Below, in pieces: positions 1,740-51,544 of a stretch of DNA of 59,782 nucleotides. Within the stretch, counting starts at the first letter, position 1. The number at the start of each line of letters is the position of its first letter. Under the pieces are notes generated by a model that had not been told where the DNA came from, did no database searches, and saw only the letters and a program-made list of their open reading frames with translations. The stretch covers positions 1 to 59,782 of the forward strand of contig LURZ01000032.1 of assembly GCA_001629255.1 (NCBI GenBank), in the 5' to 3' direction. Made by a program: the position numbers and the translations under genes. Source of the DNA: Marine group II euryarchaeote REDSEA-S42_B7 (GTDB taxonomy: Archaea > Thermoplasmatota > Poseidoniia > Poseidoniales > Thalassarchaeaceae).

Positions 1740-1816
1740 CTATTCGAGATGAAAACCTTCCGTGATTATGACTTATCACAGAAATCACCATTGACGAGAT
1801 GGCTTGCCCAGAGGTT

Positions 1817-2794
1817 ATGCCGATGCATCCTTCAGATCTGGATATCAGGCGTATCCTCACCGATAGTGATCTGGATGGAGTGGTAACTGCAGCGATACTG
1901 AGGCGTTGGTGGACGGATGCTGAAGTGGTCTTCGGTCATCCAGGAGAACTGCGTGCGGGTCTTTTCGATGATTTGATTGATGAATGGACTGCAGTTTGTG
2001 ATTTACCGATGCACCCCAAATGTGGACTGAGCATTGATCATCATGAATCAAACAGACCGAAGGGCAATGAGAGCAAGGCAATGATAGTATGGAAGGATAG
2101 CCCCTCAGCAGCTCGAATCGCCTATGAATTATTTCACGAAGTTATTGATCTTTCTGACCTTGAGGATTTACTGGATTGGGTTGACAAGCTTGACAGTGGT
2201 TCGCTAACCCATGAAGAGTTTCGTTCTCATGCTCCTGCTATCAGGTTAAGCAGGATAGTTGATTCGGGGGAGGATACAGCCGCTTGGATTCTTGAGAAAT
2301 TGATAGCTGGGGCAACAACTGAAGAGATTCTGGCAGATTCAAAAATTTCCATGTTAGTTGCCGAGAAGGAGGAGGAGTTAGTGAATCTGAACGAGGTTAT
2401 ACTCTCTAGCATGCGCATCGAGGACAGGATAGCAATAGTTCGATTGGACGGTTCGGGAATCCGCTCTAATGGCTACAACGTCACTGCAATGGCTGGTGAC
2501 GAATGCGATGCGTGTATGATTATTCACGGTGAATTGGGTGCTGATTTCGGAGACTCTGGAAGATACCCGGTCTCTGCGTCTTTCTATACCAACTCATTCC
2601 TACATCGGGGGGGTGGAATCTACGACTTGACTGCCCTGGCAACCCTTTTCGATTCCGATGGCGGAGGGCATGCAAATGCATGTGGATGTAGAGTTAAGCC
2701 CATTGAAAGTGGGGTTGTCGTAGACAGAGAAGTATCAGAAGACGACATTGAGAGGAATATATCAGAGTGGCTAAAGATGTGGTCCAAGAGATAG
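1817..2794 (+). CDS. DHH/DHHA1 family phosphoesterase (NrnA-like)
   Basis: DSDLDG, CDLP, IDHH and C-terminal GGGHANACG motifs; start uncertain (1799/1817/1823). Confidence 0.85.
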   Translation: MPMHPSDLDIRRILTDSDLDGVVTAAILRRWWTDAEVVFGHPGELRAGLFDDLIDEWTAVCDLPMHPKCGLSIDHHESNRPKGNESKAMIVWKDSPSAARIAYELFHEVIDLSDLEDLLDWVDKLDSGSLTHEEFRSHAPAIRLSRIVDSGEDTAAWILEKLIAGATTEEILADSKISMLVAEKEEELVNLNEVILSSMRIEDRIAIVRLDGSGIRSNGYNVTAMAGDECDACMIIHGELGADFGDSGRYPVSASFYTNSFLHRGGGIYDLTALATLFDSDGGGHANACGCRVKPIESGVVVDREVSEDDIERNISEWLKMWSKR

Positions 2795-3445
2795 TCAGTC
2801 CCTTTTCCAGACTGCTCTGTACCTAATTTCCTCCTTGTCTGGAACCACGGCAGTATGGAACTCTACTTCTGACAGGCCTTCTCCGATTTGGTGTATGAAG
2901 TCTCTAGACAGCGGCCAAGGCGGAGCATCATTCTGTTCTTCTAGACCATTTGCCAACCTCCCTATGCACATCAGAAGGCCTTTTCTATCCAGAAGCGGAG
3001 ATAGGTTCCTATAGGCCCTATTTCTAATTTCTTCTGGGATTGCTTGTAGAATATGTACCTCAAGGACCAGATCGAAGGCCTCCTTCCACCTCTGTTCTGG
3101 TTGAACAAGGTCTCCAACCAACCAATCAATCTCTTTCCCCTTGTGCAATTGACTTGCCCATTCAACTGCTGACTCAGACACATCGAATGCTGTAACTTTC
3201 CATCCTTTCTCATATAGGAATGCTGCGTCCTCTCCCAGACCAGAACCAACAACCAGAGCGCGTCCAGTATGCTGATTTTCTTCTGTCCACTCTACTAAGA
3301 AAGGGTGAGGTTCCATCCAATCCCAAGGAATCAGTCTCCTGTCTCTTCGAGAGCTACAGTAGAGCTCCTCAAACCAAGATAGCGGGTCATTAGAATTCTC
3401 TGAAGTAGAATAAATCTCAAGCATCCTCTCTCTTGCTTCATCCAT
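2795..3445 (-). CDS. class I SAM-dependent methyltransferase (TPMT-like)
   Basis: IPW, ALVVGSGLGEDA motif I, TAFDVS, FDLVLE and PPWPLS motifs. Confidence 0.85.
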   Translation of the reverse strand: MDEARERMLEIYSTSENSNDPLSWFEELYCSSRRDRRLIPWDWMEPHPFLVEWTEENQHTGRALVVGSGLGEDAAFLYEKGWKVTAFDVSESAVEWASQLHKGKEIDWLVGDLVQPEQRWKEAFDLVLEVHILQAIPEEIRNRAYRNLSPLLDRKGLLMCIGRLANGLEEQNDAPPWPLSRDFIHQIGEGLSEVEFHTAVVPDKEEIRYRAVWKRD

Positions 3446-5313: not shown

Positions 5314-8300
5314 ATGCAAACGAAAATAAAGTCCTCTAAGAGCGATGTAGAATCTGAAAGTGGTTTGGTCGTCGAGCGGCGGTTCACATCTGCAGGGCAG
5401 GATCCGTTCGAGTCGTTCGAATGGATTGAGATAGACGTGGAGATTAGGAACCCAGACGGGTCTATGGCCGACTCGTTAGAAGGCGTGAAATTGCCTTCAG
5501 GATTCTCTGGAGTACCGGGGACGGTCTGTGCTCAGAAGTATCTCCGCAAAGCGGGAGTTCCGAAGTATCTTCGGACCGTTCCCGAGGACGATGTTCCAAT
5601 CTGGCTACAGCGAAGTGAGCCAGATCACGAGCGGCTTCAAACTGTGGATGCGGCTGAAAGAATGGGTGGTGAGATTGACGGAAGACAGCTCTTCCGTCGG
5701 CTCGCAGGGACCTGGACCTACTGGGGCTGGAAGTACGGATACTTCGCAAGCGAGGCTGATGCCCGCGCGTACTTCGATGAGATGTGCTACCTGATTGCAA
5801 GTCAGAGATCTGCACCTAACAGTCCCCAGTGGTTCAACACAGGGTTGCACTGGGCATATGGAATCGAAGGCCCGGCTCAAGGTCATAGCTACGTAGACCC
5901 AGATACAGGTGAGCTAGGAAAATCTACCAATGCATATGAGCACCCGCAGCCCCATGCCTGTTTCATTCAGTCAGTATCTGATTCACTGGTTGGGGGTACA
6001 GACTCAATCATGGGCCTCTGGAACAGAGAGGCGCTTCTATTCAAGTATGGATCTGGTACTGGTTCCAACTTCTCTAACATAAGAGGGAAGGGAGAGCCAC
6101 TTTCAGGAGGAGGGACTTCCAGTGGGCTTCTGTCTTTCCTGAAGATTGGTGATAGAGCAGCTGGAGCAATAAAATCCGGAGGAACTACCAGGAGAGCGGC
6201 AAAAATGGTCACTCTCGACATGGACCACCCAGATATTGAAGAATACATTGACTGGAAGCCCTCGGAAGAAGAGAAAGTCTCGGCATTAGTAATCGGAAGT
6301 ACAATCCTACAGAAACACGCCAACTCGATAATGGAGTCTATTTGGTCGTTTGATAGTGATGAGGGGAGGTTCGATCAGAAAACGAACCTCGAACTCAGAA
6401 AAGCTATGGTCAAAGCCATCCATGACAGTGTTCCTCAGGCTCACATCAAAAGGATTGTCGATCTAGCCGAACAAGGTTGGAAGGGTCTGGAGTTTGAGGT
6501 CCTAGATACTGATTGGCAAGGCGAGGCCTACACGACGGTATCCGGTCAAAACAGCAACAATTCGGTCAGAGTCCCTAACTCGTTCATGGATGCTGTGCAA
6601 TCTGGGGATGAGTGGAACCTCTACTTCAGGACGGAAAGAGACGCTGCTGCGGAAGAAGGAAGGGATGCTGTCCCATGTAGAACTGTGGATGCCAAAGAGC
6701 TCTGGGACAAAGTTGCCTACACCGCTTGGGCTTGTGCGGACCCTGGAGTACAGTTCGACACCACAATAAACGAATGGCACACTTGCCCTCAAGCAGGGAG
6801 AATCAATGGATCAAACCCGTGCTCTGAGTACATGTTCCTAGATGACACTGCTTGTAATCTAGCAAGTATTAACCTCCTACATTATTACGATCTAGACAGT
6901 CATACCTTCCAGATTGAAGACTTCAAGCACAGTGTCAGAGTATGGACTGCTACCTTGGAAATCAGTGTCCTAATGGCTCAGTTCCCTTCTGAGTCGATAG
7001 CAAAGGGCTCCTATGATTACCGAACTCTTGGACTTGGTTACTGCAATATCGGATCTCTTCTAACTCACATGGGAATCCCGTATGATGACGAGAGGGCCTT
7101 CTCAATATGTGGGGCTATAAGTGCCATAATGTGCGGGGAATCATATGCCACCAGTGCAGAAATGGCCTCATACCTCGGCCCCTTTCCGGATTACGAACGT
7201 AATTCTGAAGATATGCTACGCGTAATGAGGAACCATCGAAGAGCTGCATACAACGCTCCTGCTGAAGAATATGAAGGGATAACAGTATTACCAATGGGAA
7301 TAGACTCCAAGAAGTGTCCCAAGGATCTGCTAGAAGCCGCTAGAAGCTGTTGGGATCGGGCAGTAATGGAGGGTGAGGAACATGGTTTCAGGAATGCGCA
7401 GACGACGGTAATTGCTCCAACAGGAACAATCGGTCTCGTAATGGGCGCGGATACCACAGGAATCGAGCCCCAGTTCTCTATGGTACAGTATAAGCAACTT
7501 GCAGGAGGTGGCTCTCTGAGAATTATCAACCAAGGACTGCCAAGCGCCCTGTCTAGACTTGGTTACTCAAAGTCAGAAGCGAAAGGGATAGAGGAGTATG
7601 TCGTGGGAACCGGCAGACTGAGTCCATCAATACCCCATGAGATCCTAAGCAACGCTGGAATGACCCCCGAAAAATTGTCTGAAATTGAATCTGAGCTACC
7701 AAAAGTATTCCATGTTAGGAATGCGTTCTCACCGGACATTCTTGGAAAAGAGTTCTGTATTGAAAATCTCGGATTGACAGAGGACGATTTCTACTTGGAC
7801 GAGGACGGCAAGGAAAAGTGCAGCAACCCATGGTTCGACACTCTCTCCCATATTGGCATGACAAACGAAGAAATTGAGTTTGCTAACACAGAGATTATTG
7901 GTCGGAACACCATCGAAGGAGCTCCTGGTCTGAAAGATGAGCATCTACCTATCTTTGACTGTGCTCAGCCATCGGGAGCTGGGGTCCGTTCCATTGCTCC
8001 TTCCGGTCACGTAAACATGATGGCTGCCGCGCAACCTTTCATCTCGGGAGCAATTTCAAAGACGATCAATATGCCATCCGACTGCTCAATAGAGGATGTT
8101 AGAGAAGCATACAACCTTAGCCACGCCACAATGAACAAAGCCTGCGCCGTTTACAGGGACGGGAGCAAGCTTTCACAGCCCTTGATGAGTCAGCTAGTGG
8201 ACTCCATGGAACTAGAAGAGGAGGATGAGGGAGAGGGTGTTGTCGAGAAGATGGTGGAGGAAGCCGCGAGCGCCTTACCACTTCCTGAGCCGGTGGCGAT

Positions 8301-8970
8301 GCCTGTTGCAAAGGCGCTTGTTGAGAAATACATCGCTTCAAAGAGGCCGCTCCCTCACAGAAAGAGGGGAGCGAACTTCAAGGCCAGAGTGGGCGGTCAC
8401 AGCGTACGTCTCATCACAGGAGAATACGAAGATGGCAAGCTCGGCGAGATCTTCCTGCTTACCTCCAAGGAAGGCGCCGCTTGGAGAGCCCTTCTATCCC
8501 AGTTCGCAATCGCGGTGTCTATCGGTTTACAGCATGGAGTACCCATTGATGCATTCGTGAAATCATTCACATTCACCAAGTTCGAGCCAAGCGGAATGAT
8601 AGAGGGAGGCAGTGGACGTGTGAAGATGTCATCCAGCATCATCGACTGGGTCTTCCGCGAGCTGGCAATCGAGTATGCCGGTAGGGACGACCTAGCTCAT
8701 GTCCCTCTGAATGAGGAAGACCTGAACCCATTCTCCATCAGCAGACCAGAGGTGACTGAACAGGGACTGTCTCGGAGCCAGGGTGAGAAGCGAGAGGTTC
8801 AGATGACCCTAGAAGCAGCAATGGGAGATGTGGATGCGAGGACCAGGCAGGCTGCCAGGGAGAGAGGTTTCACCGGCGACATCTGTGAAGACTGCGGGGG
8901 AAGCCAGATGGTCAGAAACGGCACCTGTCTGAAATGCAATGAGTGTGGTTCCACAACCGGTTGCTCATGA
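5314..8970 (+). CDS. nrdJ: class II (adenosylcobalamin-dependent) ribonucleotide reductase
   Basis: PNSPQWFNTG, HACFIQSV, SNPCSEY (thiyl Cys), APTGTIG, SGAISKTIN, TSCPD-like C-terminal domain and terminal CxxC..CxxC..GCS; SD GGGAGG at 5300-5305. Confidence 0.97.
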   Translation: MQTKIKSSKSDVESESGLVVERRFTSAGQDPFESFEWIEIDVEIRNPDGSMADSLEGVKLPSGFSGVPGTVCAQKYLRKAGVPKYLRTVPEDDVPIWLQRSEPDHERLQTVDAAERMGGEIDGRQLFRRLAGTWTYWGWKYGYFASEADARAYFDEMCYLIASQRSAPNSPQWFNTGLHWAYGIEGPAQGHSYVDPDTGELGKSTNAYEHPQPHACFIQSVSDSLVGGTDSIMGLWNREALLFKYGSGTGSNFSNIRGKGEPLSGGGTSSGLLSFLKIGDRAAGAIKSGGTTRRAAKMVTLDMDHPDIEEYIDWKPSEEEKVSALVIGSTILQKHANSIMESIWSFDSDEGRFDQKTNLELRKAMVKAIHDSVPQAHIKRIVDLAEQGWKGLEFEVLDTDWQGEAYTTVSGQNSNNSVRVPNSFMDAVQSGDEWNLYFRTERDAAAEEGRDAVPCRTVDAKELWDKVAYTAWACADPGVQFDTTINEWHTCPQAGRINGSNPCSEYMFLDDTACNLASINLLHYYDLDSHTFQIEDFKHSVRVWTATLEISVLMAQFPSESIAKGSYDYRTLGLGYCNIGSLLTHMGIPYDDERAFSICGAISAIMCGESYATSAEMASYLGPFPDYERNSEDMLRVMRNHRRAAYNAPAEEYEGITVLPMGIDSKKCPKDLLEAARSCWDRAVMEGEEHGFRNAQTTVIAPTGTIGLVMGADTTGIEPQFSMVQYKQLAGGGSLRIINQGLPSALSRLGYSKSEAKGIEEYVVGTGRLSPSIPHEILSNAGMTPEKLSEIESELPKVFHVRNAFSPDILGKEFCIENLGLTEDDFYLDEDGKEKCSNPWFDTLSHIGMTNEEIEFANTEIIGRNTIEGAPGLKDEHLPIFDCAQPSGAGVRSIAPSGHVNMMAAAQPFISGAISKTINMPSDCSIEDVREAYNLSHATMNKACAVYRDGSKLSQPLMSQLVDSMELEEEDEGEGVVEKMVEEAASALPLPEPVAMPVAKALVEKYIASKRPLPHRKRGANFKARVGGHSVRLITGEYEDGKLGEIFLLTSKEGAAWRALLSQFAIAVSIGLQHGVPIDAFVKSFTFTKFEPSGMIEGGSGRVKMSSSIIDWVFRELAIEYAGRDDLAHVPLNEEDLNPFSISRPEVTEQGLSRSQGEKREVQMTLEAAMGDVDARTRQAARERGFTGDICEDCGGSQMVRNGTCLKCNECGSTTGCS

Positions 8971-15246: not shown

Positions 15247-16005
15247 GTGCCAGGAGGGAGGGCTGTGACCGACAGGAAGAGGGCTTGGGCCAGAATTACC
15301 GCCGCTTCCTCCGCGGCCCTACTACTGATGGCCGTGATTTCTTTGTGGCAGGTATTCGACGACTACAACGAGCTGTACAATCCGGAGAGCAACTCTCTAG
15401 TGAAACTGGAACCAGGTGATTCGATTACGTTCGAGATAGAGAGCTCTATCTTAGTCTCGGCACTTAGGGTGTCCGATGACGGCTCACCCGATGCAGATCT
15501 GAGATTGACAGACAGTCAGGGTAATGAATTGCCGGGTAGAGGGGCTAGAGCGCTAGAGTTTGATCGTTATGATGAGCGAAATGGGACTTCATTTTCTGTC
15601 GTAAGAGTCTTCGAGAATATTGGAGGAGAATACACATTAGAGAATCTTGGTACGACCACGCTCTGGCTTGTTGACGATGAGGACTCTGCGAACAAATTAA
15701 GCGGAATAGTCTGGACTTACTTGTTCTACATAGGCTGTTGCCTGGGCTCCCCGATTGGCTTGGTTGGATTTGTACTAGCAATCATGGTATGGACTGACAA
15801 AAGGAAGATGCCGGACCAATTCGTAATAATTGATGACGGTCGCGTGATAATAGGAAATGCCCAAAGTGATATGGAAGGGGATCAGAATCCGCCAGAGGCG
15901 CCGAATCCGTTCTCAGACACCAATCGACAACCCCCGTCTACCATCTCTACTGACGCTTCAAAGGAGAAGGATGGCGAGTCATGGAAGTCGTGGGATGAGG
16001 GATGA
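15247..16005 (+). CDS. hypothetical two-TM membrane protein
   Basis: N-terminal and central hydrophobic helices, polar tail; fills the gap on the operon strand. Confidence 0.7.
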   Translation: MPGGRAVTDRKRAWARITAASSAALLLMAVISLWQVFDDYNELYNPESNSLVKLEPGDSITFEIESSILVSALRVSDDGSPDADLRLTDSQGNELPGRGARALEFDRYDERNGTSFSVVRVFENIGGEYTLENLGTTTLWLVDDEDSANKLSGIVWTYLFYIGCCLGSPIGLVGFVLAIMVWTDKRKMPDQFVIIDDGRVIIGNAQSDMEGDQNPPEAPNPFSDTNRQPPSTISTDASKEKDGESWKSWDEG

Positions 16006-16085: not shown

Positions 16086-16817
16086 GTGGTGGGCTTCGAT
16101 GAGTCTCTGAGTATTCTGGAGAATCCTACTAGGAGATCTATTCTCAGACATCTCGTAAAGGAGCCTCACTACCCATTGCAACTCTCTGAGTTGCTTGATG
16201 TCAGCCAACAAGCGGTTGTAAAACACCTCAAGGTTCTGGAGGAAGCTGGATTCGTAGATTCGGAAATGAAGAAGTCGGACAAAGGCGGCCCCCCTAAGAA
16301 AGTGTACAGAGTCAATCAGTCGTTCTCGATTCGTCTGGATTTGGGGCCAGACCTTTTCCGAGCCGAGCATAGGAAGATGCCTCGCGGAGTGAGTTTTTCC
16401 GGAGGTCTTCCCAACAATCTGGAGGGTGTTTTGGGCAAGATTAGCTCCAGAAAGAGCCTACCGATAGTAGATGCTATGGGGATCTTGTCAGAGTTGGATG
16501 CGGCGTTGGAAAGTGTTGACAGACAGAGAGATTCGATAATCGCGCTACACCAGCAAGTCATGCACAAGGTCTCTCCGAGTCTGGAAAAGGGCTTCGAGTC
16601 TTACGAAGAGAGGCAGCTTGCACACGCCATGATGAGGAACCCTAGGAGACCGTTGGACTTGGATGCTTTCTCCCAAGGTATGAGGATACAATCAATGCAT
16701 GCTGAGAAGATGATGGATGCTTTGAGAGAGAAACTAATGAGGGATTTCGCGACAAATTCTGGTTCCTTTGTCTCTGGCAGAGAGTCAGTGCCGCTTCCTT
16801 GGTGGATGGCGAAGTAG
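16086..16817 (+). CDS. ArsR-family winged-helix transcriptional regulator
   Basis: LENPTRRSIL, LSELLDVSQQAVVKHLKVLEEAG, GPPKKVY; coiled-coil C-terminal half. Confidence 0.88.
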   Translation: MVGFDESLSILENPTRRSILRHLVKEPHYPLQLSELLDVSQQAVVKHLKVLEEAGFVDSEMKKSDKGGPPKKVYRVNQSFSIRLDLGPDLFRAEHRKMPRGVSFSGGLPNNLEGVLGKISSRKSLPIVDAMGILSELDAALESVDRQRDSIIALHQQVMHKVSPSLEKGFESYEERQLAHAMMRNPRRPLDLDAFSQGMRIQSMHAEKMMDALREKLMRDFATNSGSFVSGRESVPLPWWMAK

Positions 16818-16820
16818 ACC

Positions 16821-19800
16821 TCAGAACACTAGATCATCATCATCTGAACCTGGCAATAGACTGCTCAGTTCTGAGAATCTAGCGAGTGCCTCAACCCTCC
16901 TTCCCCAGATTACGAAGCCTGCGACTCCAAACAGGGAGAAAGTTGCTCCTATGATGATAACCGGAACAGAGTATCTAACTACAATCTCTCTACCTACATC
17001 GATTGCCCCTAGTGGAGATTTCATGTTCCCTATCTTCTCGATGTTGTTACTCTCGTCGGTTTCCACGATATTGTTGTCAGGATCTACTACGACTACGATA
17101 TCGTGGTTGCCAGCTTCGACCATGTATAGAAGGGTAATCGGGTCTGACAGATCTGACTCGGACTGCCCTATTGGCATGATGGCATTTACAATCTGCCTGT
17201 AGACTATGTTCTCCTCCTTGCATCCGTTCCTCTTAATGTCAGATTCGGACTGATCCTTGCAAAGGATGATGTTGACGTCAGCAGCGTGTGCGTTTCCTCT
17301 GTTTGTGATGAATACATTGACTGAGAGCATCTCTCCAATCGCGGCTTCTCTGTCTGGAGCCACCACGCTCTCTAGAACTAGATCAGGAGCTCTGAGGCGC
17401 ATCTCGAGGACCTGCTCATTCGTATCGCAATCGGGAGCGGGGTTGTCGGGGATACCGTCAGAGTTGGTATCCAATGTACACGAGTCGGTCCAGACTTCAG
17501 TCTCATCGAAATCACCGCCCTCGTCAGAAGAGCCGTGCATAGATAGGACCTTGATTCCGAGATTTCTGTCAACCAGCGATGCATCGGGAGCCACGGTGAC
17601 AATGACAACTAGTTGCAGAGTAGTATATGGCTCCATCACGGGAAGCGTGATCGTGTTTCCTGCGGTTACATAACAATAGTCGGGCCCTTCTCCCTGGGAG
17701 GCTTGCTGGTTGATTTGGTTCTCCTCCTCGACATTTAGTTCCACGCATGGCTTCTCAAGCGGGAACTCGCTACCGAACCCTTCCAACAGAGCGTAGTCTA
17801 TTTCCCATGTGCTGAGAGAACCCAGGCCCGGACTCACGGACCAGATTTTGTTCACATCATCGTATGTGTGGTTGTGGATCGTGGGCTGATCTGCCACGTT
17901 TCCATAATTCGAGACGTTGAGAGTGTATCTTACGATTCTGCTTGGAGCTGTGGTTTTGATCTTGCTCTCCACTAACGGATCCAGAGAAATTTGCATATCG
18001 TGGAACTCGATTATGGTAGCTCTGAGTACCACCTGATCCTGAACCCTAGTTCCCTCATAGGGCTCCTCACTCAGGATGTTGAATGTGATCGTGTAATCAC
18101 CAGCTAGGGTCTGAACTGGGACGTTGATGTAAATTGGGACGGTCTGTGACTCATCTCTATTCAATTCCTCGAACAATATCCTCGGGATGTACATGTCCCA
18201 AACGTGAGCTGCTCCTTTATCGTCAATTATGGACTCGATTGTGACGTCGAACCTGTCTTGGCCATTTCCAAGGTTGGAGATTGTGGTGTTCATTTGGTAG
18301 GATTGACCGGGGTATAGGTCTAGTATAGTCTCAGGTACTGAGGACTCTAGTTCGTACCTCTGAACAACATTTGTCAGAATTAGCACAGAGTCACGAACTT
18401 TCGGGGAGCCATCCAGATGCGCACGGACTGTGACAGATTCCCCAATTCCGGCGGTTGCATTGAACGGGGAGCACATCTCGGCCGTGACTGTGTATGTGTT
18501 GCCCACATTTGCCCAGTAGATGTCCTGATCAGCAGATGAGGATCCGCCCGTCCATTCTGAGAAGTCCAAGTCTACTGTCCAATGATCGAACCTCCATGAG
18601 TTGATATCTGCCTCTTCTGGCCTCTCCATTGGTGCGCCGGGAGTCGTGAAAACTAGACTCCCTGGAGTAAAGTACTTGTTCACCTGAACAGGGAATCTAG
18701 CACACTCCCCAGGAAGAACGTACAGTTTTGTATCCCCGATATCGAATACAATGTTCCCAGTTGTCCTTATCGAGACGTTTATCCATAACTCTAGTACATC
18801 GAATGTCCCTCTATCTACAGACAAGACAGGTTCGCCGGTTGACCATCCCTTCAGGTATATGGCAAAGGTGCCGGGGTCCTGGGATTCAGGGACACTGACC
18901 TTTAGATTCCTAGTTACGGATTGACCTGGATCCAAGGATAGCGACAGTGGGAAGTCTATCCCCCATCCAAACGGAAGTGACCACTCGTTTTGTCCGTCCA
19001 GTGTAGCCGGGTCATAGAATGCGAACGTATCGAAAACGTTTCCAGTGTTCTTGATAGAAATCGAGAAGACTGCCGATTTGCCCTGCTCAACATCTACTTG
19101 GAAATGGCTTGTATCGAGTTCTATTCCATGGACAACATCCATCAGAGTAAGCAAGGTTAGCTTGTTGCGGATAGCGGGGTCCTTTTGCGAGGTTGCGATG
19201 ATGCTTATTTGCGCAAGTTCGTCGCTCTTAGCCTGATAGATTGTGGGTGTTCTGACTCTTAGGTAAAGCGGATCTATGGCTCCGCCCTCTAGGAAAATCT
19301 TAGTTGAGTCGAAAATCGGGGTATTGTTGGTCGTATAGAATAATGTTGCAGTCCAGTTGTTTGGAACGCCCTCCATTGTTATTGTGAAGGTATCCTGGAC
19401 CAACTCCGCGGGCCCTGGGGTGGGATTAGCTATTGTGATGTTGAACGTTGTAAGTTCTCCTGGCTGAATAGTATGGTAGAATGTCTCAGCGTCTGAAGGG
19501 CAATCGTATGGGTATCCCTCAATATTCGGATTTGCCTGTATCTTTTCGTCACAGGCCAGTGAGAGGTCCACTAGGCCAGTCAGGACGTGCACGTAGCAAA
19601 GAGTCCACTTGTTGGCATTCTGACCATCCCAGTCGCACCTCTTGTCTGACCATCCGATATGCGCTCCACTACCGAGATCGTTGGCGAATGCAGGAGGCAT
19701 CCCACGATCGAGATTGAAGTCAGGGAACAGATGGTGTCCGTCGGCGGTATTGCACTCTGGCTGGCAGGGTGCAGGGCCTAACTTGTCAGAAGACCAATTG

Positions 19801-22073
19801 GTAACTTCTTGTATCTCCCATGGGTCGAGTATCGAAGAGGCTGCAGAATTCAATGGGAATCCCTGCGGGTACTCCTCGTTGGTATTGTTTAGTCTGGCAT
19901 ACATAATTGTCTCCTGCCATTCAGTATTGCTGTAGTCAATCCAAGCCAGATGGACATTGTCGAAGGAGTCGGTCAAGATGGAGGGTGCCACAGAGCTTGG
20001 TGCAAACGGGAATTCTTCGCTAGCACCCTCGCATTGCTCAGAGTTCGAAATCGCGCTTGAAGCGATTTGCTTAATTCCGTATGCTGGTAGGCCCTCGGGG
20101 ACTCCGTCCCATTCTGCAGCACCTCTCAGTCTGAGTCTGGTGTAGTATACTTCGTAGGCGCCTTCGATATCGATTCCACCTGTTGGTCCTGAGCAGCCAG
20201 GATATAGTCGTCCGTCCTGCCATGCGAGATGCGTGTTTCCTGATGTGTCTATTGCTATTGAGGGGTGTAGGCTGTAAGCAGGGTTGTTTGTAATCTGAGT
20301 ATCATTCACAACGACCAGATGTCCGTAGCCCTGTTCATCCTCTGATGGACCCAAATCCTCGGTATAGTAACCTCCTTGCTGATTAGATTCTGTACCTGGA
20401 TCGCCTCTAGTCCAACCGGGCCATGGATTCTCTAGAAGCGAGTGAGGGTCTAGAACAGTCATGTAAATCTCTCGAGAGTTATTCGTAGCTAAGTAGACCA
20501 TTGCCTCTACCATTATTTCGAGCTCCGACGAGGAGCCTGCGGTTGTTGGGAACTGATACATTTGGCCCTCTGCGGAAGTTGTTCGAGTCGTAGCCCCGCT
20601 GCAGGATCTAGTGTTCAGTCCTGACCCCACAGGGCACTGGGCAAGATCGAGCATGTAACTTCCTACAGAAGTGTCGGAGCCTGCCCAGAGAGGATATGGC
20701 TTTGTCTGAGCCAAAACACAAGCGTCGTGGGCCTGATTGATGCTCTGCGTATCGTCATTGTCCATTGGCGTCCCTCCGTATGGTCCTTCGTCAGAAATTG
20801 GAATCACTACCCTCGTGGCATTGTCATTCCATCGATGGTCCAGAGTTGTTGGGGGGTTTGCAGAAAGTCCCTGCCTTCCTTGGACATCTCTGTAGGACAA
20901 GCAGGCCCAAGTTGCTGCAGGACCCCAGAACTCGCTGTAGTAACCGCCATCGGCGGGTAGGTTGGTCGCTTGGTTGTTGTAAACCACCTCAGTGAGTTCT
21001 CTGATTCCTCCGGATGAGTCTCCTGGACCTAGCGGAGTGTTTCTCGGGCCCTGACTACCGGATCCTCCGGTCTGGTAAGCGTCAGCACAGTTTCCGCTGG
21101 TCGCTGCTGCTGGCCAATTGCCACTTAGTGCATAGAGGGTTTCGTATACACTCATATTGGCACTGACAAGCATGGGCTTTAGTCCCACGAAATACCCGCC
21201 GCTCGCAAAGTTCCCTCCATAGAATACAGCACACATGTCAGCCCATTCTGCATTCATGGAGCCAGATGTATCGATAGGGACAACCATCTCTACTTGGCCG
21301 CCCCTTGTATCATCCCAGACTATCTGAACGAAGTCGTTTACGTCAACGGCGATATCTGGGTGGCCCTTCTGTCCAAGGATAGGGGTCAAGAGTGTGCTGT
21401 CAATCTCCACTATAACCATTCTAGCGACGTGATCAATTGACATCATCTTGTAGTAAATCTGAGATTGTTGATAGTATAGTTCCAATGGTTCGAACGAGTC
21501 TTCCCATACAATATGTGGATTATTTTCAGAATCTACGTCTATTGCAGGCCAGTCTCTGTTCTGAGGATTGTTTGCAACCTCGTAATCGTCTGGAACCACG
21601 GAAAGTACCGAGTCCAGAGACGCATCGCCGCTCTGGTCGTCCAAGGAAGGATCCAATAGAGTGTACATAATCTTGTATTGACTTGCCTTATCCGTCCAAA
21701 CGACGTGGACCATGTCATCATTGTCTACTCTAATGTCTGGATGCCAGGCTCGATGAGCTCCTGGATCAGAGATTTGAGTCTCTGCAATCAGTGTCTCCCC
21801 CCTAGGATCTAGCATCTTGTAGTAAAGGTGATTCGTGTTGCGACTCCAGACTACGTGGACGTTCCCAGATGAGTCTGCATCCATGGACATCATTCTATCA
21901 TTGTGGACACCGCTCTGGACGACTTCTATGGGATCGGTCAGAACAATTTCGCTCGCACTAGCCTGTGGCGAGAATGTGGCGAGGAGGCTCACGAGCATTA
22001 GCACGACAATCGCTAAACCGCTCTTCTTGGTAGATATACGGTCGTTAGTAAGATGTCGAAAGGTATGCATCAT
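16821..22073 (-). CDS. large cell-surface protein: propeller-type repeats + vWA + Ig-like repeats + CARDB-like domain + C-terminal TM
   Basis: Signal-like KKSGLAIVVLMLVSLLA..ASA; seven DxxxxxH[VIL]xW-type repeats; DTSGS MIDAS; [IV]xNxGNxxD repeats; PDLV..VVVDPDNNIVETDESNN; C-terminal TM. Start moved to ATG 22073 to remove overlap. Confidence 0.85.
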   Translation of the reverse strand: MMHTFRHLTNDRISTKKSGLAIVVLMLVSLLATFSPQASASEIVLTDPIEVVQSGVHNDRMMSMDADSSGNVHVVWSRNTNHLYYKMLDPRGETLIAETQISDPGAHRAWHPDIRVDNDDMVHVVWTDKASQYKIMYTLLDPSLDDQSGDASLDSVLSVVPDDYEVANNPQNRDWPAIDVDSENNPHIVWEDSFEPLELYYQQSQIYYKMMSIDHVARMVIVEIDSTLLTPILGQKGHPDIAVDVNDFVQIVWDDTRGGQVEMVVPIDTSGSMNAEWADMCAVFYGGNFASGGYFVGLKPMLVSANMSVYETLYALSGNWPAAATSGNCADAYQTGGSGSQGPRNTPLGPGDSSGGIRELTEVVYNNQATNLPADGGYYSEFWGPAATWACLSYRDVQGRQGLSANPPTTLDHRWNDNATRVVIPISDEGPYGGTPMDNDDTQSINQAHDACVLAQTKPYPLWAGSDTSVGSYMLDLAQCPVGSGLNTRSCSGATTRTTSAEGQMYQFPTTAGSSSELEIMVEAMVYLATNNSREIYMTVLDPHSLLENPWPGWTRGDPGTESNQQGGYYTEDLGPSEDEQGYGHLVVVNDTQITNNPAYSLHPSIAIDTSGNTHLAWQDGRLYPGCSGPTGGIDIEGAYEVYYTRLRLRGAAEWDGVPEGLPAYGIKQIASSAISNSEQCEGASEEFPFAPSSVAPSILTDSFDNVHLAWIDYSNTEWQETIMYARLNNTNEEYPQGFPLNSAASSILDPWEIQEVTNWSSDKLGPAPCQPECNTADGHHLFPDFNLDRGMPPAFANDLGSGAHIGWSDKRCDWDGQNANKWTLCYVHVLTGLVDLSLACDEKIQANPNIEGYPYDCPSDAETFYHTIQPGELTTFNITIANPTPGPAELVQDTFTITMEGVPNNWTATLFYTTNNTPIFDSTKIFLEGGAIDPLYLRVRTPTIYQAKSDELAQISIIATSQKDPAIRNKLTLLTLMDVVHGIELDTSHFQVDVEQGKSAVFSISIKNTGNVFDTFAFYDPATLDGQNEWSLPFGWGIDFPLSLSLDPGQSVTRNLKVSVPESQDPGTFAIYLKGWSTGEPVLSVDRGTFDVLELWINVSIRTTGNIVFDIGDTKLYVLPGECARFPVQVNKYFTPGSLVFTTPGAPMERPEEADINSWRFDHWTVDLDFSEWTGGSSSADQDIYWANVGNTYTVTAEMCSPFNATAGIGESVTVRAHLDGSPKVRDSVLILTNVVQRYELESSVPETILDLYPGQSYQMNTTISNLGNGQDRFDVTIESIIDDKGAAHVWDMYIPRILFEELNRDESQTVPIYINVPVQTLAGDYTITFNILSEEPYEGTRVQDQVVLRATIIEFHDMQISLDPLVESKIKTTAPSRIVRYTLNVSNYGNVADQPTIHNHTYDDVNKIWSVSPGLGSLSTWEIDYALLEGFGSEFPLEKPCVELNVEEENQINQQASQGEGPDYCYVTAGNTITLPVMEPYTTLQLVVIVTVAPDASLVDRNLGIKVLSMHGSSDEGGDFDETEVWTDSCTLDTNSDGIPDNPAPDCDTNEQVLEMRLRAPDLVLESVVAPDREAAIGEMLSVNVFITNRGNAHAADVNIILCKDQSESDIKRNGCKEENIVYRQIVNAIMPIGQSESDLSDPITLLYMVEAGNHDIVVVVDPDNNIVETDESNNIEKIGNMKSPLGAIDVGREIVVRYSVPVIIIGATFSLFGVAGFVIWGRRVEALARFSELSSLLPGSDDDDLVF

Positions 22074-22137
22074 CCATATTCGACTTTCTCGAATACTTAA
22101 CCTATACCCATTATGGTCACTTGATCGAGATGACGAG

Positions 22138-26235: not shown

Positions 26236-27699
26236 TCAATCGGCGACGGAAATAGCAATTCTGCGTACTGCAACTGCTGCATCGAGCATCTTCTCTGTGG
26301 CTCCCTCTGGATTGAATCCGGAGGAGAGCGTTGTCTGAACCACGAACGCCGAGAGTGTCTCCCCTGTGGGCCCCCTCATGTTAACCTGAACTGGCTTAGA
26401 GCCTGTTGACCCAGTGGGCCATGCCAGACCTATCCATAAGACCAGACTGTTGTCAATCAGTCTTGCTAGCACGTCTACTATATCGTTTCCCTCTTCTCCT
26501 ATTTTTGCAGGTTTCTTGGGCTGTTTGGATACTGGCGGATTCAACCTCAGTGTCTGCTGGTGGGGTTCTCCGTCAGCGGCAATGATGTCTACCTCTATCT
26601 GAGATTCACGTCCAGAGTGGTTATGGATCATGACGAACAAGTCCCCTTGCCCCTGGGAGCATCGGGGGGGGATGTCCAGATCGAGTCTCCATGGGCTCTC
26701 GATAAGTGAGGCATGCCCCCTCAATGCAGCATCCTCGAGCCTATCGATCAGTCTGAAGAGTCCGGGTTGCCATGCCCTAGTGTGTGCCATTAGTCTCCTG
26801 AGTGTCCTGTAACAGAACTTAGACTCGTCATTGTTTAAATCGTCGATTGCAGCAATCCTGAAGACCCTCTTGGATTCGGATATCAGTCTGCTGTCATCAA
26901 CGAGACCTAGGTGATTCAGATGTAGTACTCTAAGCAGGTGCTCTACCGCAGATTCAGGAGTTTGGTTCGATCTGACCTTGTTTTCTAGGCCAACGACCCA
27001 ATCGTCCCATGCCCCCGCTGTTTCCGGATCTAAATGTGCTACTACCAAATCAGTAAGAGCTCTCTTCAGAGTACTTTGATGGAGAGTCGGGGCGTGCATG
27101 GATAACAACGGAAAGTCTGAGTCTATCATAGGAATTCGACGTTCCAACTGAAGTGTGTTGATAATAGAGATAGATCCTAGAAATACAGCTAATCCGAAGA
27201 GTATCGACGCCAGAATCGTCCCTGTCTCGAAGTTGTCCTCAGAATTCAGCGCTCCTGCTGCAAGTAACGCACATATGAGTCTAGTTCTCTCTCTGAGTGT
27301 TCTCTCTTGGAGCGTGTTCAGGATTCTCTCAACACCGGGATAGGCTTCCATGTATCTAGTACGTCCGATTTTCAACTGTAGTCGGTCTCTAGCAGACATC
27401 TGGGCGAAGGAAGAGGCCAGCATAGCAGGGAAGAAAAGAACGGCCTGAAATGCGAAGAGTGCAACACCGACGTAAACCAGTTCCCCTCCCCGACCAGATG
27501 CTAGGATTAGCGTAGCCAATACCGCAGCGAATGATATGGATATTCTGGCGAGGCCACTCCACCGTATAGTGGCAATTTTGGTCCAGAACACTCTCTGAGA
27601 GTCTCTGATTCGAACTCTTCGTTCCAGAGCGGACTCAGTGGAGCCGGATAAGTCGTCTTCGCCATAGGGGTTGGGAAGGTCAGACATATTGCTCGCCAT
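26236..27699 (-). CDS. hypothetical membrane protein
   Basis: 487-aa ORF with 3-4 TM segments then a soluble domain; co-oriented with neighbours. Confidence 0.75.
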   Translation of the reverse strand: MASNMSDLPNPYGEDDLSGSTESALERRVRIRDSQRVFWTKIATIRWSGLARISISFAAVLATLILASGRGGELVYVGVALFAFQAVLFFPAMLASSFAQMSARDRLQLKIGRTRYMEAYPGVERILNTLQERTLRERTRLICALLAAGALNSEDNFETGTILASILFGLAVFLGSISIINTLQLERRIPMIDSDFPLLSMHAPTLHQSTLKRALTDLVVAHLDPETAGAWDDWVVGLENKVRSNQTPESAVEHLLRVLHLNHLGLVDDSRLISESKRVFRIAAIDDLNNDESKFCYRTLRRLMAHTRAWQPGLFRLIDRLEDAALRGHASLIESPWRLDLDIPPRCSQGQGDLFVMIHNHSGRESQIEVDIIAADGEPHQQTLRLNPPVSKQPKKPAKIGEEGNDIVDVLARLIDNSLVLWIGLAWPTGSTGSKPVQVNMRGPTGETLSAFVVQTTLSSGFNPEGATEKMLDAAVAVRRIAISVAD

Positions 27700-27800: not shown

Positions 27801-27878
27801 GGGCGTGTAGCATAGCCTGGATAATGCACCGGCCTCCTAAGCCGGGGACCGCGGGTTCGAATCCTGCCGCGCCCGCCA
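27801..27878 (+). tRNA. tRNA-Arg(CCT)
   Basis: Acceptor GGGCGTG/CGCGCCC, D-stem GCAT/ATGC, anticodon arm CCGGC-CTCCTAA-GCCGG, T-arm GCGGG-TTCGAAT-CCTGC, encoded CCA. Confidence 0.96.
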
Positions 27879-30031: not shown

Positions 30032-30107
30032 GCCCCGATGGTGTAGTGGCCTATCATGCAGCCCTGTCGAGGCTGCGACCCGGGTTCAAATCCCGGTCGG
30101 GGCGCCA
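30032..30107 (+). tRNA. tRNA-Asp(GTC)
   Basis: Acceptor GCCCCGA/TCGGGGC, anticodon arm CAGCC-CTGTCGA-GGCTG, T-arm CCGGG-TTCAAAT-CCCGG, encoded CCA. Confidence 0.96.
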
Positions 30108-34455: not shown

Positions 34456-36189
34456 ATGCCTTTCGGTGGATTGGATATCATGGCCAAGCCTCCTGCAGAA
34501 GTTCGTTTCCCCGGTGACAGGAGTCGTAGGAAGAGAGTGAGGGTAAGGGGAATTAAACAGGCCTCGAAGGAAATCCAGCAGAGGCTCGAGAGGAGCCTGG
34601 AGGCACTGCTGGAAAACCCAGAGAGTTTCCTTCCAGAGATAGTTGGGGATTTGGGGAAGGTCTCACTCTTCGGGAACAAGGACCCCATGGCATTGACGTT
34701 GCACGAGCTCAAAGCTGTCTCCTCAAAAAGAAACGATATCAGGTGGCTGAAGAAGAGGATGTCCAAAAGAAGCGGAGGGGATGTATCCCGTTCCCTTGCT
34801 GGGAGCCTAGTTGCAGCATCTGAGGAGGATCTGACTACGGTCTCGGTATTCAAGAGCGACGTCTACGGTAACGCTAGCTACCTAAAGAGAGGGAGCGGTA
34901 GACCTGGCCATCTTGTAGGCATACAGAACTTCAACCACCCCCGGCTGAGGCTTTTGGTCTGGGACGACCACGCCAAGGCAGGCCAGTACTTCTTCTCGTG
35001 GGATGGAGGTTTCGTGTTCACTGGATTTGAGCCGACTCCTCCCTCCGAGTGGGTGCAGTGGACCCTTGGGAACACTTCAGTGGACCTGCAGGGAGATTCT
35101 TGCAAGTGGTCTGCGGGATTGGACGAAGAGACTGTTGTCTCAGAATCAGGGACTGCGGATGGCTGGCTTAAGCTCGAGTTCTCCGATGGAACCAAGGTGG
35201 GGCTCTCCCCTGCAGCGCTGGCCAAGACAGAGGAGCCCGTGGCAAGGAGCATTGCTGTGTCGATGATGCCTCCCAATAAACTTGGAGAGGTCTGCGAGGC
35301 GGCTTGGGTGTGGAGGCCAGAGGGGTGGCCAGAGGACAGGGCTCTACCCGAAGAGGGTCTCGAGAGAGTGGATGAAGTCCTGAATACCTGGCTCAAGATG
35401 TCGTTGGAGGACAATGCTCTAGCAAGGGCCTGCAGGTACAGTATTCTAAACTCGATCACCGATGGATTCGTCGTCGGTAGTAACTGGTTCTCCGATGACA
35501 ATAGAGGGGAGTTCCTCGGTCACATGAATGGGACGGAGGACGAGCGCCGGGCGCTCGCCTGTGTACTAGATTCGATAGACGATGGAATCCACGTCAGGTC
35601 GGATGGCGTCGTAGTGAGCCTGGACGAAAAGGTCGTGAGGCTCGAAGACTCTTCGTGCCACCCTGTTCTGGTTTCTCTCTGGGAAGAGCACGGTGGGACA
35701 ATCCTGGAGGATTTGTTCGGACTGGTAGGAGAGGATGCGGAGAGGGTTCACTCAAGACAGTCGAAGAGGAAGCAGGGGTTCGGAGCTTTTCTACGAGAGT
35801 TAAGCGAGTCGCTGAGCACTGCAATGAAGCTGGATAGGCTTCCTTGGAAGAGAGGAGCTCTCCCTGGCCCTCTTTCATTCGCAGACGATTTGGTGCGGAA
35901 GGCCGCTGATGATGGGGTTGCCTCCACTGTCTCCATGGCTAGGAAGGGTAGAGGTCTGGAGTCCTCTATGGGCTGGGCATGGTTGGTAGTGCACGATAAG
36001 ACGGAGTCGGATGCATGGAGATTCGATGAAGAGAGCCGCGACAAGGGGGGCGACTGGGTCCCAGCCCTGAGGGCGCTCTGGGACGCTGCTCAGGCGCTTC
36101 TGCTGGAAGACGATCTTGAGGCTGAGTCAGACTATCGCTCTGCTATGGAGTGGTTGGCAGAAGTAAGCGGGTCTGGCTCGTTGCCTTAG
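34456..36189 (+). CDS. hypothetical protein (577 aa)
   Basis: Long uninterrupted ORF, basic N-terminus, typical composition; no motif recognised. Confidence 0.8.
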   Translation: MPFGGLDIMAKPPAEVRFPGDRSRRKRVRVRGIKQASKEIQQRLERSLEALLENPESFLPEIVGDLGKVSLFGNKDPMALTLHELKAVSSKRNDIRWLKKRMSKRSGGDVSRSLAGSLVAASEEDLTTVSVFKSDVYGNASYLKRGSGRPGHLVGIQNFNHPRLRLLVWDDHAKAGQYFFSWDGGFVFTGFEPTPPSEWVQWTLGNTSVDLQGDSCKWSAGLDEETVVSESGTADGWLKLEFSDGTKVGLSPAALAKTEEPVARSIAVSMMPPNKLGEVCEAAWVWRPEGWPEDRALPEEGLERVDEVLNTWLKMSLEDNALARACRYSILNSITDGFVVGSNWFSDDNRGEFLGHMNGTEDERRALACVLDSIDDGIHVRSDGVVVSLDEKVVRLEDSSCHPVLVSLWEEHGGTILEDLFGLVGEDAERVHSRQSKRKQGFGAFLRELSESLSTAMKLDRLPWKRGALPGPLSFADDLVRKAADDGVASTVSMARKGRGLESSMGWAWLVVHDKTESDAWRFDEESRDKGGDWVPALRALWDAAQALLLEDDLEAESDYRSAMEWLAEVSGSGSLP

Positions 36190-50621: not shown

Positions 50622-51506
50622 CTATTCTCCGTCCCAGATCCCTTCTGTAATCATGAAGTCCATCACCCTCTCAGAAACGTTGGCTCTGTTGCCCCCTCTA
50701 ACTCCGGTGGCAGAGACCTCGAACACCTCAGCTGGAATATCCTTCGCCTCCCTTACCTCATATCCCACTTTGCGGCCATATGAGACGGCCTCGATATCTG
50801 GCATTATCCATGCCTCTACATCCTCATCTGCGTACCTGTGCTCGATCATTCGCTTGCGAAGGAGGGCGGAGTACGGGTCCTTCTCAGATACTGGCGTGTC
50901 CCTAATGCCAACTACTACCTTGTTGCCTAGGTCTAGTTCCTGTTGGATCAGCCATTCATGGCCTACGTGCAATGGTTGCCAGCGGCCCGGGAGCAGCACG
51001 GCCTTATTTTTCTCGAAGAGGTGGGATAGTTGGTCCACCATATCATCCACCGTGTGACCGTCTTCCCCGCTAGAGTCGAGTGTGAAGTGGGCACAATTGG
51101 GTTCATCGAATGGATCCGAAATACCAGTGAAATTGGATATCGCCCCCGATCTAGCCTTGGCGTACAGTCCCTTTACATCTCTTTTCTCGCAGACTTCGAG
51201 AGTGGTAGAGACGTGGACCATGACTGAGTTTTTTGGAAGAATGTCCAGTATCTTCTCTCTGACGCTCTCGTAAGGCGTGATGAACGAGCATATCACCGGT
51301 GTGTGCTTGGACAATAGAGTGGCCATCTTTGCAATACCAAGGAGGTGTCTTTCCCTTCCCTCTCTAGAGAAGTCTTGGTTTGAGAAGAAATCCCTGATGG
51401 TGTCGCCGTCCAGAAGTTCGGCTCCGTACCGCTCGCAAGCAGCCTCGGCTATGGTTGTCTTTCCGGCCCCTGAAAGCCCAATCAGCCATACTACCTTGTT
51501 CCCCAT
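50622..51506 (-). CDS. cysC: adenylyl-sulfate kinase fused to a HxGH nucleotidyltransferase domain
   Basis: GLSGAGKTT, LDGD..R, RDVKGLY, FTGISDP; C-terminal GRWQPLHVGH..SAT.VR; start moved to ATG 51506. Confidence 0.9.
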   Translation of the reverse strand: MGNKVVWLIGLSGAGKTTIAEAACERYGAELLDGDTIRDFFSNQDFSREGRERHLLGIAKMATLLSKHTPVICSFITPYESVREKILDILPKNSVMVHVSTTLEVCEKRDVKGLYAKARSGAISNFTGISDPFDEPNCAHFTLDSSGEDGHTVDDMVDQLSHLFEKNKAVLLPGRWQPLHVGHEWLIQQELDLGNKVVVGIRDTPVSEKDPYSALLRKRMIEHRYADEDVEAWIMPDIEAVSYGRKVGYEVREAKDIPAEVFEVSATGVRGGNRANVSERVMDFMITEGIWDGE

Positions 51507-51544
51507 GATGGAATCCCTGTGTGCCGGCGACTCGCGTCGGTCAT

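Follow-up and report, generated by a model that had tools for sequence, protein, structure and literature searches.

Whether an archaeal surface protein can share the layout of an integrin alpha chain is the question raised by a large gene on contig LURZ01000032.1 of Marine group II euryarchaeote REDSEA-S42_B7, which was analyzed over its full 59,782 nucleotides (hereafter the window). The original prediction described the product as a seven-repeat propeller with a vWA domain (von Willebrand factor type A), bearing a MIDAS (metal ion-dependent adhesion site), inside the fourth repeat, and all the strings that it quoted are present at their places in the 1,750-residue product. Its observation was confirmed, and its interpretation is partly supported. 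Profile alignments show that an insert of ~275 residues replaces the tip of the hairpin joining strands B and C in blade 4 of the predicted propeller. We give a probability of about 0.5 to the best explanation for the protein: a surface receptor or adhesin that would bind its ligand in a cation-dependent manner and carry a divergent vWA/MIDAS insert on its propeller. The gene and the two parts of its propeller are as follows.

16821..22073, (-) strand: whole coding sequence, 1,750 amino acids plus stop, with an ATG ATG start at 22073 and the stop codon at 16821-16823.
21300..21908, (-) strand: blades 1-3 together with strands A-B of blade 4, residues 56-258 (repeat motifs, blade profiles, and alignment to relatives with seven repeats of 52 residues).
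19524..20474, (-) strand: strands C-D of blade 4, then blades 5-7, residues 534-850 (same basis; blade 7 is the weakest).

The seven repeats of the propeller are located at residues 67, 117, 181, 244, 609, 702, and 799. The pattern D..[GDNS]..[HQ][ILV][VAG]W matches the protein seven times, and these are its only seven matches in all six frames of the window. Since just 44 of 20,000 shuffles of the protein yielded even one match, the motif exceeds what chance would produce. The strand [IL]xYxx[LM], which had been expected after each repeat, is exact in four of the seven cases and deviates in IYMTVL, VYYTRL, and LCYVHV. Blade profiles were cut from an alignment of 38 orthologues (A1) and compared by hhalign. 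Blades 1 to 6 match one another with probabilities of 78-98%, except for the pairs b1-b4 (13.8%) and b4-b6 (3.7%); blade 7 is weaker, with 67-68% to blades 2 and 3 and at most 31% to the others. In-register alignment of the N-terminal strand for a velcro closure brought no gain in score (17.2 versus 17.6).

The family of the propeller became apparent from short relatives, obtained by a representative search of 1.84 billion proteins that gave 1,351 matches at E ≤ 1e-3. In P0200 (410 residues) and P0248 (414 residues), a signal peptide precedes exactly seven 52-residue repeats without interruption, which take the form xSxxPxIAVDSxxNVHIxWxDxRDGNxEIYYTKLDNNGNTLVxDxRLT, and P0212 also has seven repeats. 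P0200 and P0208 exceed the cutoff of Pfam BNR_4 (36.1 bits for P0200 against a cutoff of 27.3), and P0242 exceeds that of SBBP. The window protein reaches BNR_4 with an E value of 6.3e-4 (19.6 bits, below the cutoff of 27.3) and, over residues 26-133, the NCBIfam model PDIAV_lipo (“PDIAV motif-containing lipoprotein”) with 44.7 bits against a cutoff of 90. It shares with P0200, P0248, P0212, and PDIAV_lipo the blade motif P.IAVD..(G/N).H(I/V).W.D.RDGN.EIYY, whereas the three short proteins are only ~400 residues long, with contiguous blades and without insert, stalk, or transmembrane helix. As judged from these profiles, the predicted propeller is of the BNR_4/SBBP (Asp-box-related) type and not of the FG-GAP type, and seven-blade proteins of the BNR_4/SBBP type are its nearest true relatives. 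The same blade type was also seen in giant proteins of 3,500-6,000 residues (P0135, P0145, P0149, P0150, P0154, and P0214), which contain 2-9 stretches of it. In P0154 and P0214 (scanned, up to 5,000 residues) it occurs along with TSP3_bac, CarboxypepD_reg, Big_7, and SdrD_B domains. Giant proteins with TSP3_bac, Big_7, SdrD_B, PKD, and cohesin domains form an adhesin-like milieu for this blade type.

These family ties also bear on the idea of a cell-surface enzyme, in which algal polymers would be cleaved by a BNR/sialidase-like propeller with glycoside hydrolase or lyase activity, while the insert would serve to bind the substrate or as a lid. The propeller family is related to BNR_4/BNR_2, and the relatives P0178 (2.9e-12) and P0208 (1.1e-7) show sub- or near-threshold GH43 matches. 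However, the window protein matches no hydrolase or lyase family in Pfam or NCBIfam, and no catalytic residues could be identified. Moreover, the regular relatives with seven repeats of 52 residues resemble recently amplified binding scaffolds, and the strongest constraint falls on the insert, not on the blades. We consider an enzymatic role highly improbable.

Blade 4 is where the propeller is interrupted, by the following domain.

20475..21299, (-) strand: inserted Cys-rich domain, residues 259-533, a probable divergent vWA/MIDAS domain (flank alignment and splice test).

The string REIYMTVLD at residues 534-542 corresponds to the displaced strand of blade 4, and the two flanks of the insert (WDDTRGG on one side, SREIYMTVLD on the other) align to W.D.RDGN.EIYY, which is contiguous in blades without an interruption. 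A propeller spliced by removal of residues 260-532 was matched by hhalign to P0200 with a probability of 99.7% (E value 5.6e-27, 368 columns) in an alignment that runs through the splice. With P0248, a single alignment extends over positions 2-522 (of 537) of the spliced propeller and residues 44-413 of the relative, and the probabilities for uninterrupted relatives with seven 52-residue repeats are 99.7-99.8% overall. Across the splice, VQIVWDDTRGG joined to SREIYMTVLD pairs with LHICWYDNRDGNYEIYYK. The spliced blade 4 was also compared with other blades of the same protein by hhalign: it matches blade 2 at 97.5% with an alignment that crosses the junction, and it falls in the same register on blade 1 at an unsupported 8-14%. 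Because the alignment continues straight across the splice, the ~275 residues sit in the B-C hairpin of blade 4, in agreement with the displaced strand that the original prediction had proposed for repeat 4. In propellers, B-C loops lie on the “top” face.

A structural model was available for a homologue that shares the interruption. P0128 (907 residues, 36% identical over 741 residues) carries DTSGS at residues 255-259 within an insert at ~246-513, and its stored Atlas model has a predicted template modeling score (pTM) of 0.64 and a mean predicted local distance difference test (pLDDT) of 0.62. The model superposes on a 382-residue bacterial BNR_2/BNR_4 propeller with 360 residues across positions 25-753 and a TM-score of 0.85 (hit-normalized). 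One propeller thus spans the insert in that model, which supports a single interrupted propeller at the level of a predicted fold. No vWA domain was present among the structural neighbors listed for the P0128 model, in a search that used the whole protein. For the distant homologues P0122-P0147, the Atlas lineage note reads “Archaea, commonest Thermoplasmatota.”

We then asked whether the insert is a vWA domain. Two elements are candidates for its metal site.

21258..21272, (-) strand: D-T-S-G-S, residues 268-272, candidate MIDAS DxSxS after a hydrophobic strand (conservation and vWA profile match).
20787..20795, (-) strand: S-D-E, residues 427-429, candidate third MIDAS element after the strand RVVIPI (putative assignment).

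The first lies in VVPIDTSGSM at residues 264-273 (MVVPIDTSGSM at 263-273), and the second in IPISDE at residues 424-429. A strand beta1 ending in DxSxS marks members of the vWA family, and MVVPIDTSGSM is such a strand, with the textbook vWA beta1-MIDAS signature; the vWA counterpart of the SDE strand reads h-h-h-h-T/S-D-G. In 80 loci kept from a one-genome-per-species collection (the basis of all counts out of 80 below), DTSGSM is present in every locus, and it is invariant in all 38 rows of the orthologue alignment. The sequence [IV]SDE ends a hydrophobic strand ~155 residues after DTSGS and is likewise kept in 80/80 loci, as are the six cysteines of the insert.

Profile comparison supported the motif strand. 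Against a profile of 10 genuine YfbK-type vWA domains, built from nine plasmid-borne YfbK-like genes, the insert profile scored 43.0 (P 1.6e-5), compared to 13.9 ± 2.4 with a maximum of 23.0 for 100 column shuffles; against a 12-sequence profile it scored 45.4. When 68 control proteins were scored against the insert profile, the two top places went to the two true vWA proteins. The vWA domain of P0214, verified by Pfam, resembles the insert at the motif strand only (score 28.1, P 2.4e-3). Extended alignments to Escherichia coli YfbK and to this domain, two unrelated vWA sequences, are colinear end to end, with very low confidence. In these low-confidence alignments, RVVIPISDEG pairs with RILLATDGD and PIQLFFSDGS, followed in order by helix, strand, helix, strand, and helix, and two family-specific elaborations are left over at approximately residues 325-410 and 485-505. 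A crude Chou-Fasman and hydrophobic-moment scan put strands close to four of the five positions where they were expected, and helices at three, and was overall nondiscriminating.

Several observations weigh against a vWA fold. The significant similarity is confined to 12-16 columns, and masking of the first 30 columns, which hold the motif strand, lowered the score to 12.9, equal to that of shuffles (13.7 ± 2.4). Standard hhalign of the insert against the vWA profile gave a probability of 48% over 15 columns. The DTAGR strand of FtsY (48745-50013, (-) strand) scored 28.7, third among the 68 controls and near ViaA at 31.8, which indicates that a strand followed by DxxGx is not by itself specific to vWA domains. 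Pfam VWA was not found in the whole protein at E ≤ 1, no Pfam family was found in the insert alone at E ≤ 10, and an NCBIfam search detected no vWA domain in the window protein. Among 19 diverse homologues (A2), the best result was a single VWA_CoxE match with an E value of 0.12, and a precomputed VWA Pfam domain is present in 0 of the 120 orthologues listed. PDB sequence and profile searches were empty at E ≤ 10. Besides DxSxS, a MIDAS uses an aspartate after beta4, for which the SDE aspartate is a candidate, and a threonine from the alpha3-alpha4 loop; no candidate could be assigned for the threonine, the invariant D.SGG motif being a mere guess. Finally, DxSxS is intact in 12 of the 19 diverse homologues, and the other seven keep the rest of the domain. 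The proposal that the insert is a vWA domain therefore held for its DxSxS strand and found no similarity or family match beyond it. On the strength of the motif, we still regard a vWA fold as likely.

The same comparisons revealed a second set of conserved residues. WGP..WAC, NPPT..DH.WN, and EAH..C, together with all six cysteines, are invariant or nearly so in the 19 diverse rows, including the seven without DxSxS, and DH.WN and WGP..W[AS]C are present in 80/80 loci. As the domain persists in these seven homologues, metal binding is not its sole conserved feature; the alignments thus point to a conserved core that is independent of the putative metal site, the site itself being strictly kept within Poseidoniales. 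This core could be structural, an interface with the propeller, or a second site. The SDE aspartate is lost in five of the seven rows without DxSxS. Those five belong to one clade (100/99 support), which also holds P0133, where both motifs are retained, and since a single loss is possible, the joint disappearance of DxSxS and SDE is weak evidence of joint function. A search of plasmids with the insert (tblastn, E ≤ 10) gave two irrelevant matches.

A conserved core of this kind would suit a lineage-specific, disulfide-rich domain unrelated to vWA, with WGP..WAC, NPPT..DH.WN, and EAH..C as its functional core and DTSGSM as a convergent sequence or an unrelated metal-binding or structural motif. 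The disappearance of vWA similarity upon masking of the motif strand and the lack of family or PDB matches also speak for such a domain. On the other hand, it leaves aside a canonical beta1-MIDAS signature, after which a hydrophobic strand and SDE come at the relative position where they are expected, and two independent vWA sequences map b4, b5, b6, and the last helix colinearly, although without statistical support. In addition, insertion into a hairpin requires a domain whose N and C termini lie next to each other, as they do in the vWA fold. We find a non-vWA insert possible but somewhat unlikely.

The remainder of the protein comprises the following parts.

21954..22073, (-) strand: signal peptide, residues 1-40 (hydropathy; hydrophobic core at 17-40, then A-S-A followed by S-E).
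17499..19496, (-) strand: stalk of about five Ig-like beta-sandwich domains of ~125-130 residues, residues 860-1525 (self-hhalign).
17445..17471, (-) strand: DTNSDGIPD, residues 1535-1543, a thrombospondin-type-3-like acidic loop (string present).
17040..17387, (-) strand: CARDB domain, residues 1563-1678 (Pfam PF07705, E value 1.3e-14, 54.6 bits, cutoff 22.7).
16905..16967, (-) strand: transmembrane helix, residues 1703-1723 (hydropathy maximum 2.25), followed by G-R-R.
16824..16904, (-) strand: cytoplasmic tail, residues 1724-1750, with the motif RR.EAL.R.(S/A)E.SSL..acidic..F.

The 1,750-residue product is a type I membrane protein that runs from a signal peptide to a 27-residue tail. Aligned orthologues share the ATG ATG start at 22073; a longer TTG-initiated frame extends to 22289 and overlaps the upstream DUF2299 gene. 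In orthologue rows, the hydrophobic core of the signal peptide is followed by A-[ST]-A-[ST] and then [DE]-[IV]-V-x-T-D, and cleavage presumably occurs between A-S-A and S-E. The Ig-like repeats and the CARDB-like domain of the original prediction were both recovered. When the stalk was compared with itself by hhalign, repeats with probabilities of 60-97% appeared at offsets of ~130, 258, and 385 residues, and Pfam NPCBM_assoc matches the stalk above its cutoff (1.1e-6, 29.2 bits). DUF7507 and Ig_VWA7 of Pfam stay below their cutoffs, as does choice_anch_T of NCBIfam (66.3 bits against 70). We thus predict about six beta-sandwich domains in all, CARDB being the last. The string DTNSDGIPD had been taken for a Ca-binding-like loop. 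It is present, and the window protein has no TSP_3 or TSP3_bac match at E ≤ 1; TSP_3 does match 4 of the 19 diverse homologues (best 1.7e-5), and the loop may bind calcium.

The tail motif RR.EAL.R.AE.SSL..acidic..F is common to most orthologues of Marine Group II (MGII). Among 41 rows, G[RK][RK] is found in 29, a terminal F in 28, and at least three acidic residues within the last 12 positions in 36. Four distant rows have long, different tails, and the tails of P0130, P0138, and P0147 exceed 100 residues and end in D(D/L)L(I/L)D(D/G)L(W/I/L). This conserved motif suggests an intracellular partner.

Taken together, the signal peptide, a seven-bladed propeller with an insert of ~200-300 residues bearing DxSxS, beta-sandwich legs, one transmembrane helix, and a short tail reproduce the domain order of an integrin alpha chain with an I domain, as had been proposed. 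The parts differ. The propeller of integrins is FG-GAP, whereas the blades of the window protein are BNR_4/SBBP and no FG-GAP family was found in it at E ≤ 1; integrin-like and Asp-box propellers are described as separate superclusters in the part of PMC8023676 that treats them. The alpha-I domain is inserted between blades 2 and 3, according to the relevant section of PMC3192720, and not within the B-C hairpin of blade 4. Integrin_alpha2 leg domains were not found in the window protein by Pfam, and no beta-subunit-like gene was seen among the neighbors of the large gene. Integrin alpha tails carry a membrane-proximal GFFKR motif, unlike the tail of the window protein, which begins with WGRRVEALARF. 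As the propeller is not of the integrin type, the resemblance is one of layout only. Furthermore, the alpha-I domain arose within chordates, as stated in portions of PMC3192720 and PMC10659397, so that the likeness to the window protein would be convergent. The convergence proposed by the original prediction is consistent with both the blade type and the insertion site: as far as sequence comparison can tell, the integrin-like layout arose independently, with the vWA fold of the insert being only probable. A full archaeal counterpart of integrin alpha-I, with a MIDAS on a closed propeller, cation-dependent adhesion, and a tail coupled to an intracellular partner, is decidedly unlikely in our estimate; if true, it would mean that the most abundant planktonic archaea signal across their membrane with a single-pass receptor.

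Other proteins combine some of these modules. The type IV pilus tip adhesin PilY1 has a vWA domain and a beta-propeller in tandem, and P0214 likewise has Pfam VWA at residues 2220-2396 and the blade type of the window at 3095-3251. Both resemble the predicted window protein in combining the two modules within one extracellular protein, but hold them side by side and not one inside the other. RrgA and GBS104 are vWA-bearing pilus adhesins, and in adhesins of the RrgA type another domain hosts the vWA domain as an insertion. CglB of Myxococcus xanthus is reportedly an integrin alpha-I-like outer-membrane lipoprotein adhesin, and PilB of Streptococcus sanguinis is said to be a vWA-bearing pilus adhesin. 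CglB, PilB, RrgA, and GBS104 are prokaryotic surface adhesins using a vWA/MIDAS domain, but they are bacterial, and an Ig-like or pilin module takes the place of the propeller as host domain. A literature search outside the supplements of MGII papers surfaced no description of this protein or of a prokaryotic vWA-in-propeller architecture.

To determine how widespread and how constrained the gene is, we examined its orthologues. A relative is encoded in 585 of 593 pattern-matched stretches of the one-genome-per-species collection. A word-indexed search gave 449 matches, of which the 120 listed are 50-93% identical and nearly all 1,516-1,752 residues long, apart from one fragment of 966 residues. 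They come from Poseidoniales, Thalassarchaeaceae, or Thermoplasmatota metagenome-assembled genomes and bear the database names “CARDB domain-containing protein,” “hypothetical,” or “uncharacterized membrane protein.” In one further locus (L001, contig CACKMK010000004.1) the region is near-identical, with 100% identity over the matched 960 residues and 94-99% per gene. Among the neighbors, the DUF2299 gene is conserved in 76/80 loci and both the ArsR-type helix-turn-helix (HTH) gene and an acyltransferase gene in 73/80, which may reflect the general synteny of the order. No match to the head was found in phages by tblastn.

Comparison with locus L002 (96% amino acid identity) gave ratios of nonsynonymous to synonymous substitution rates (dN/dS) of 0.013-0.025 in all seven regions of the protein, with dS at 0.64-1.10. 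In seven further pairs (88-90% identity, with dS saturated), the insert had the lowest dN every time (0.018-0.029), below the blades (0.051-0.067) and stalk domains 3-5 (0.070-0.082). Column conservation is likewise higher in the head and the first two stalk domains than in the membrane-proximal stalk, the boundaries being approximate. The gene is thus a core, single-locus, order-wide gene of Poseidoniales under strong purifying selection (dN/dS ~0.015). Strong purifying selection together with order-wide conservation at a single locus is unusual for adhesins and counts against our preferred explanation; such selection is easier to reconcile with a conserved ligand or with a structural role than with an adhesin that varies.

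A structural role is what the main rival, by our ranking, proposes: the protein would be the principal envelope protein of MGII, similar to a surface-layer (S-layer) protein, with a transmembrane anchor, the stalk as spacer, and the propeller plus insert as canopy. Its cation sites would stabilize lattice contacts, with no outside ligand. One conserved syntenic locus with neighbors kept in 73-76/80 loci, strong constraint throughout the protein (dN/dS ~0.015), a head and upper stalk more conserved than the membrane-proximal stalk, and a signal peptide combined with a C-terminal anchor are all compatible with this role. The ectodomain is acidic (isoelectric point 4.2), and the literature search surfaced no envelope protein of Poseidoniales. 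However, an effective number of codons of 52.3, compared to a window median of 54.3, does not suggest outstanding expression, although this is a low-power test, and N-glycosylation sequons are not enriched (14 observed against 14.5 ± 3.4 expected). We know of no solved archaeal S-layer protein with a propeller head, and the conserved tail motif points to an intracellular partner that a passive lattice protein would not need. On balance, we judge a main envelope protein unlikely.

In the cation-dependent receptor or adhesin that we favor, the seven-bladed BNR_4/SBBP propeller would form the membrane-distal head once the signal peptide is cleaved, and the six-cysteine domain of ~275 residues would bud from the B-C hairpin of blade 4. 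Its DTSGS strand and the subsequent SDE strand have the order and spacing of a MIDAS in a vWA fold with two elaborations, and the domain would hold Mg2+ or Ca2+, divalent cations that are each abundant in seawater. The insert may then bind a conserved acidic ligand through this cation, with the propeller as a platform. Particles, polymers, or other cells would be the targets of such a receptor or adhesin. From these features we infer that the insert binds a metal and, with the head, a ligand, and that it serves in adhesion.

The surroundings of the gene are those of an archaeal chromosome, with genes for TFIIB, topoisomerase VI A and B, replication factor C, a class II ribonucleotide reductase, FtsY, and prefoldin, and the base composition and codon usage of the large gene are ordinary for the window. 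The 64-nucleotide gap upstream of its start (22074-22137, (-) strand) contains an A/T-rich stretch, gtataggttaagtatt, ~22-37 nucleotides before the ATG. By eye, this stretch looks like an archaeal TATA element, and the large gene may thus have its own promoter. At the other end, the gene of an ArsR/Phr-like HTH regulator (16086-16817, (+) strand) converges on it with three bases between the coding regions (16817 and 16821), and the convergent pair is kept in 73/80 loci. Adjoining the regulator, at 15247-16005 (+), a 252-residue membrane protein is encoded that matched no Pfam or NCBIfam family. It is present in 66/80 loci and diverges much faster than its neighbors, with 24-57% identity where the large protein has 60-90%.

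Further features were noted elsewhere in the window. At 50622-52345 (-), a gene resembling APS kinase plus cytidylyltransferase (open reading frame [ORF] 50622-51590) overlaps the start of an inositol-monophosphatase-family gene, perhaps CysQ-like, and the two form a possible 3′-phosphoadenosine-5′-phosphosulfate (PAPS)/sulfation module. The class II ribonucleotide reductase (5314-8970, (+) strand, 1,218 residues) matches its barrel domain in two stretches and has a C-terminal TSCPD domain; it is long enough that it could contain an insertion such as an intein. Three ORFs had no Pfam family, at 34456-36189 (+), 26236-27699 (-), and 1799-2794 (+), with 577, 487, and 331 residues, respectively. 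The first has the highest GC content (0.56), and its GC content at third codon positions (0.63) is among the three highest of the ORFs examined; the second is syntenic in 62/80 loci. Two tRNA genes complete the list.

27801-27878, (+) strand: tRNA-Arg(CCT).
30032-30107, (+) strand: tRNA-Asp(GTC).

MGII are described in PMC6461757, in the passages concerned, as the most abundant planktonic archaea of ocean surface waters and as uncultured, and the parts of PMC6461757 and PMC6336850 that deal with their contacts with particles, algae, viruses, or one another discuss these only via archaella, thrombospondin-like, and flotillin genes. As the gene described here is order-wide and strongly constrained and its products bear merely generic labels, it is a candidate for the main surface receptor or an envelope component of MGII. 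It is thus a candidate that can be tested in this role and possibly as a virus receptor. If the proposed architecture is true, a MIDAS-like domain budding from the hairpin of a BNR-type blade would mean that the integrin alpha-I solution was invented a second time, independently.

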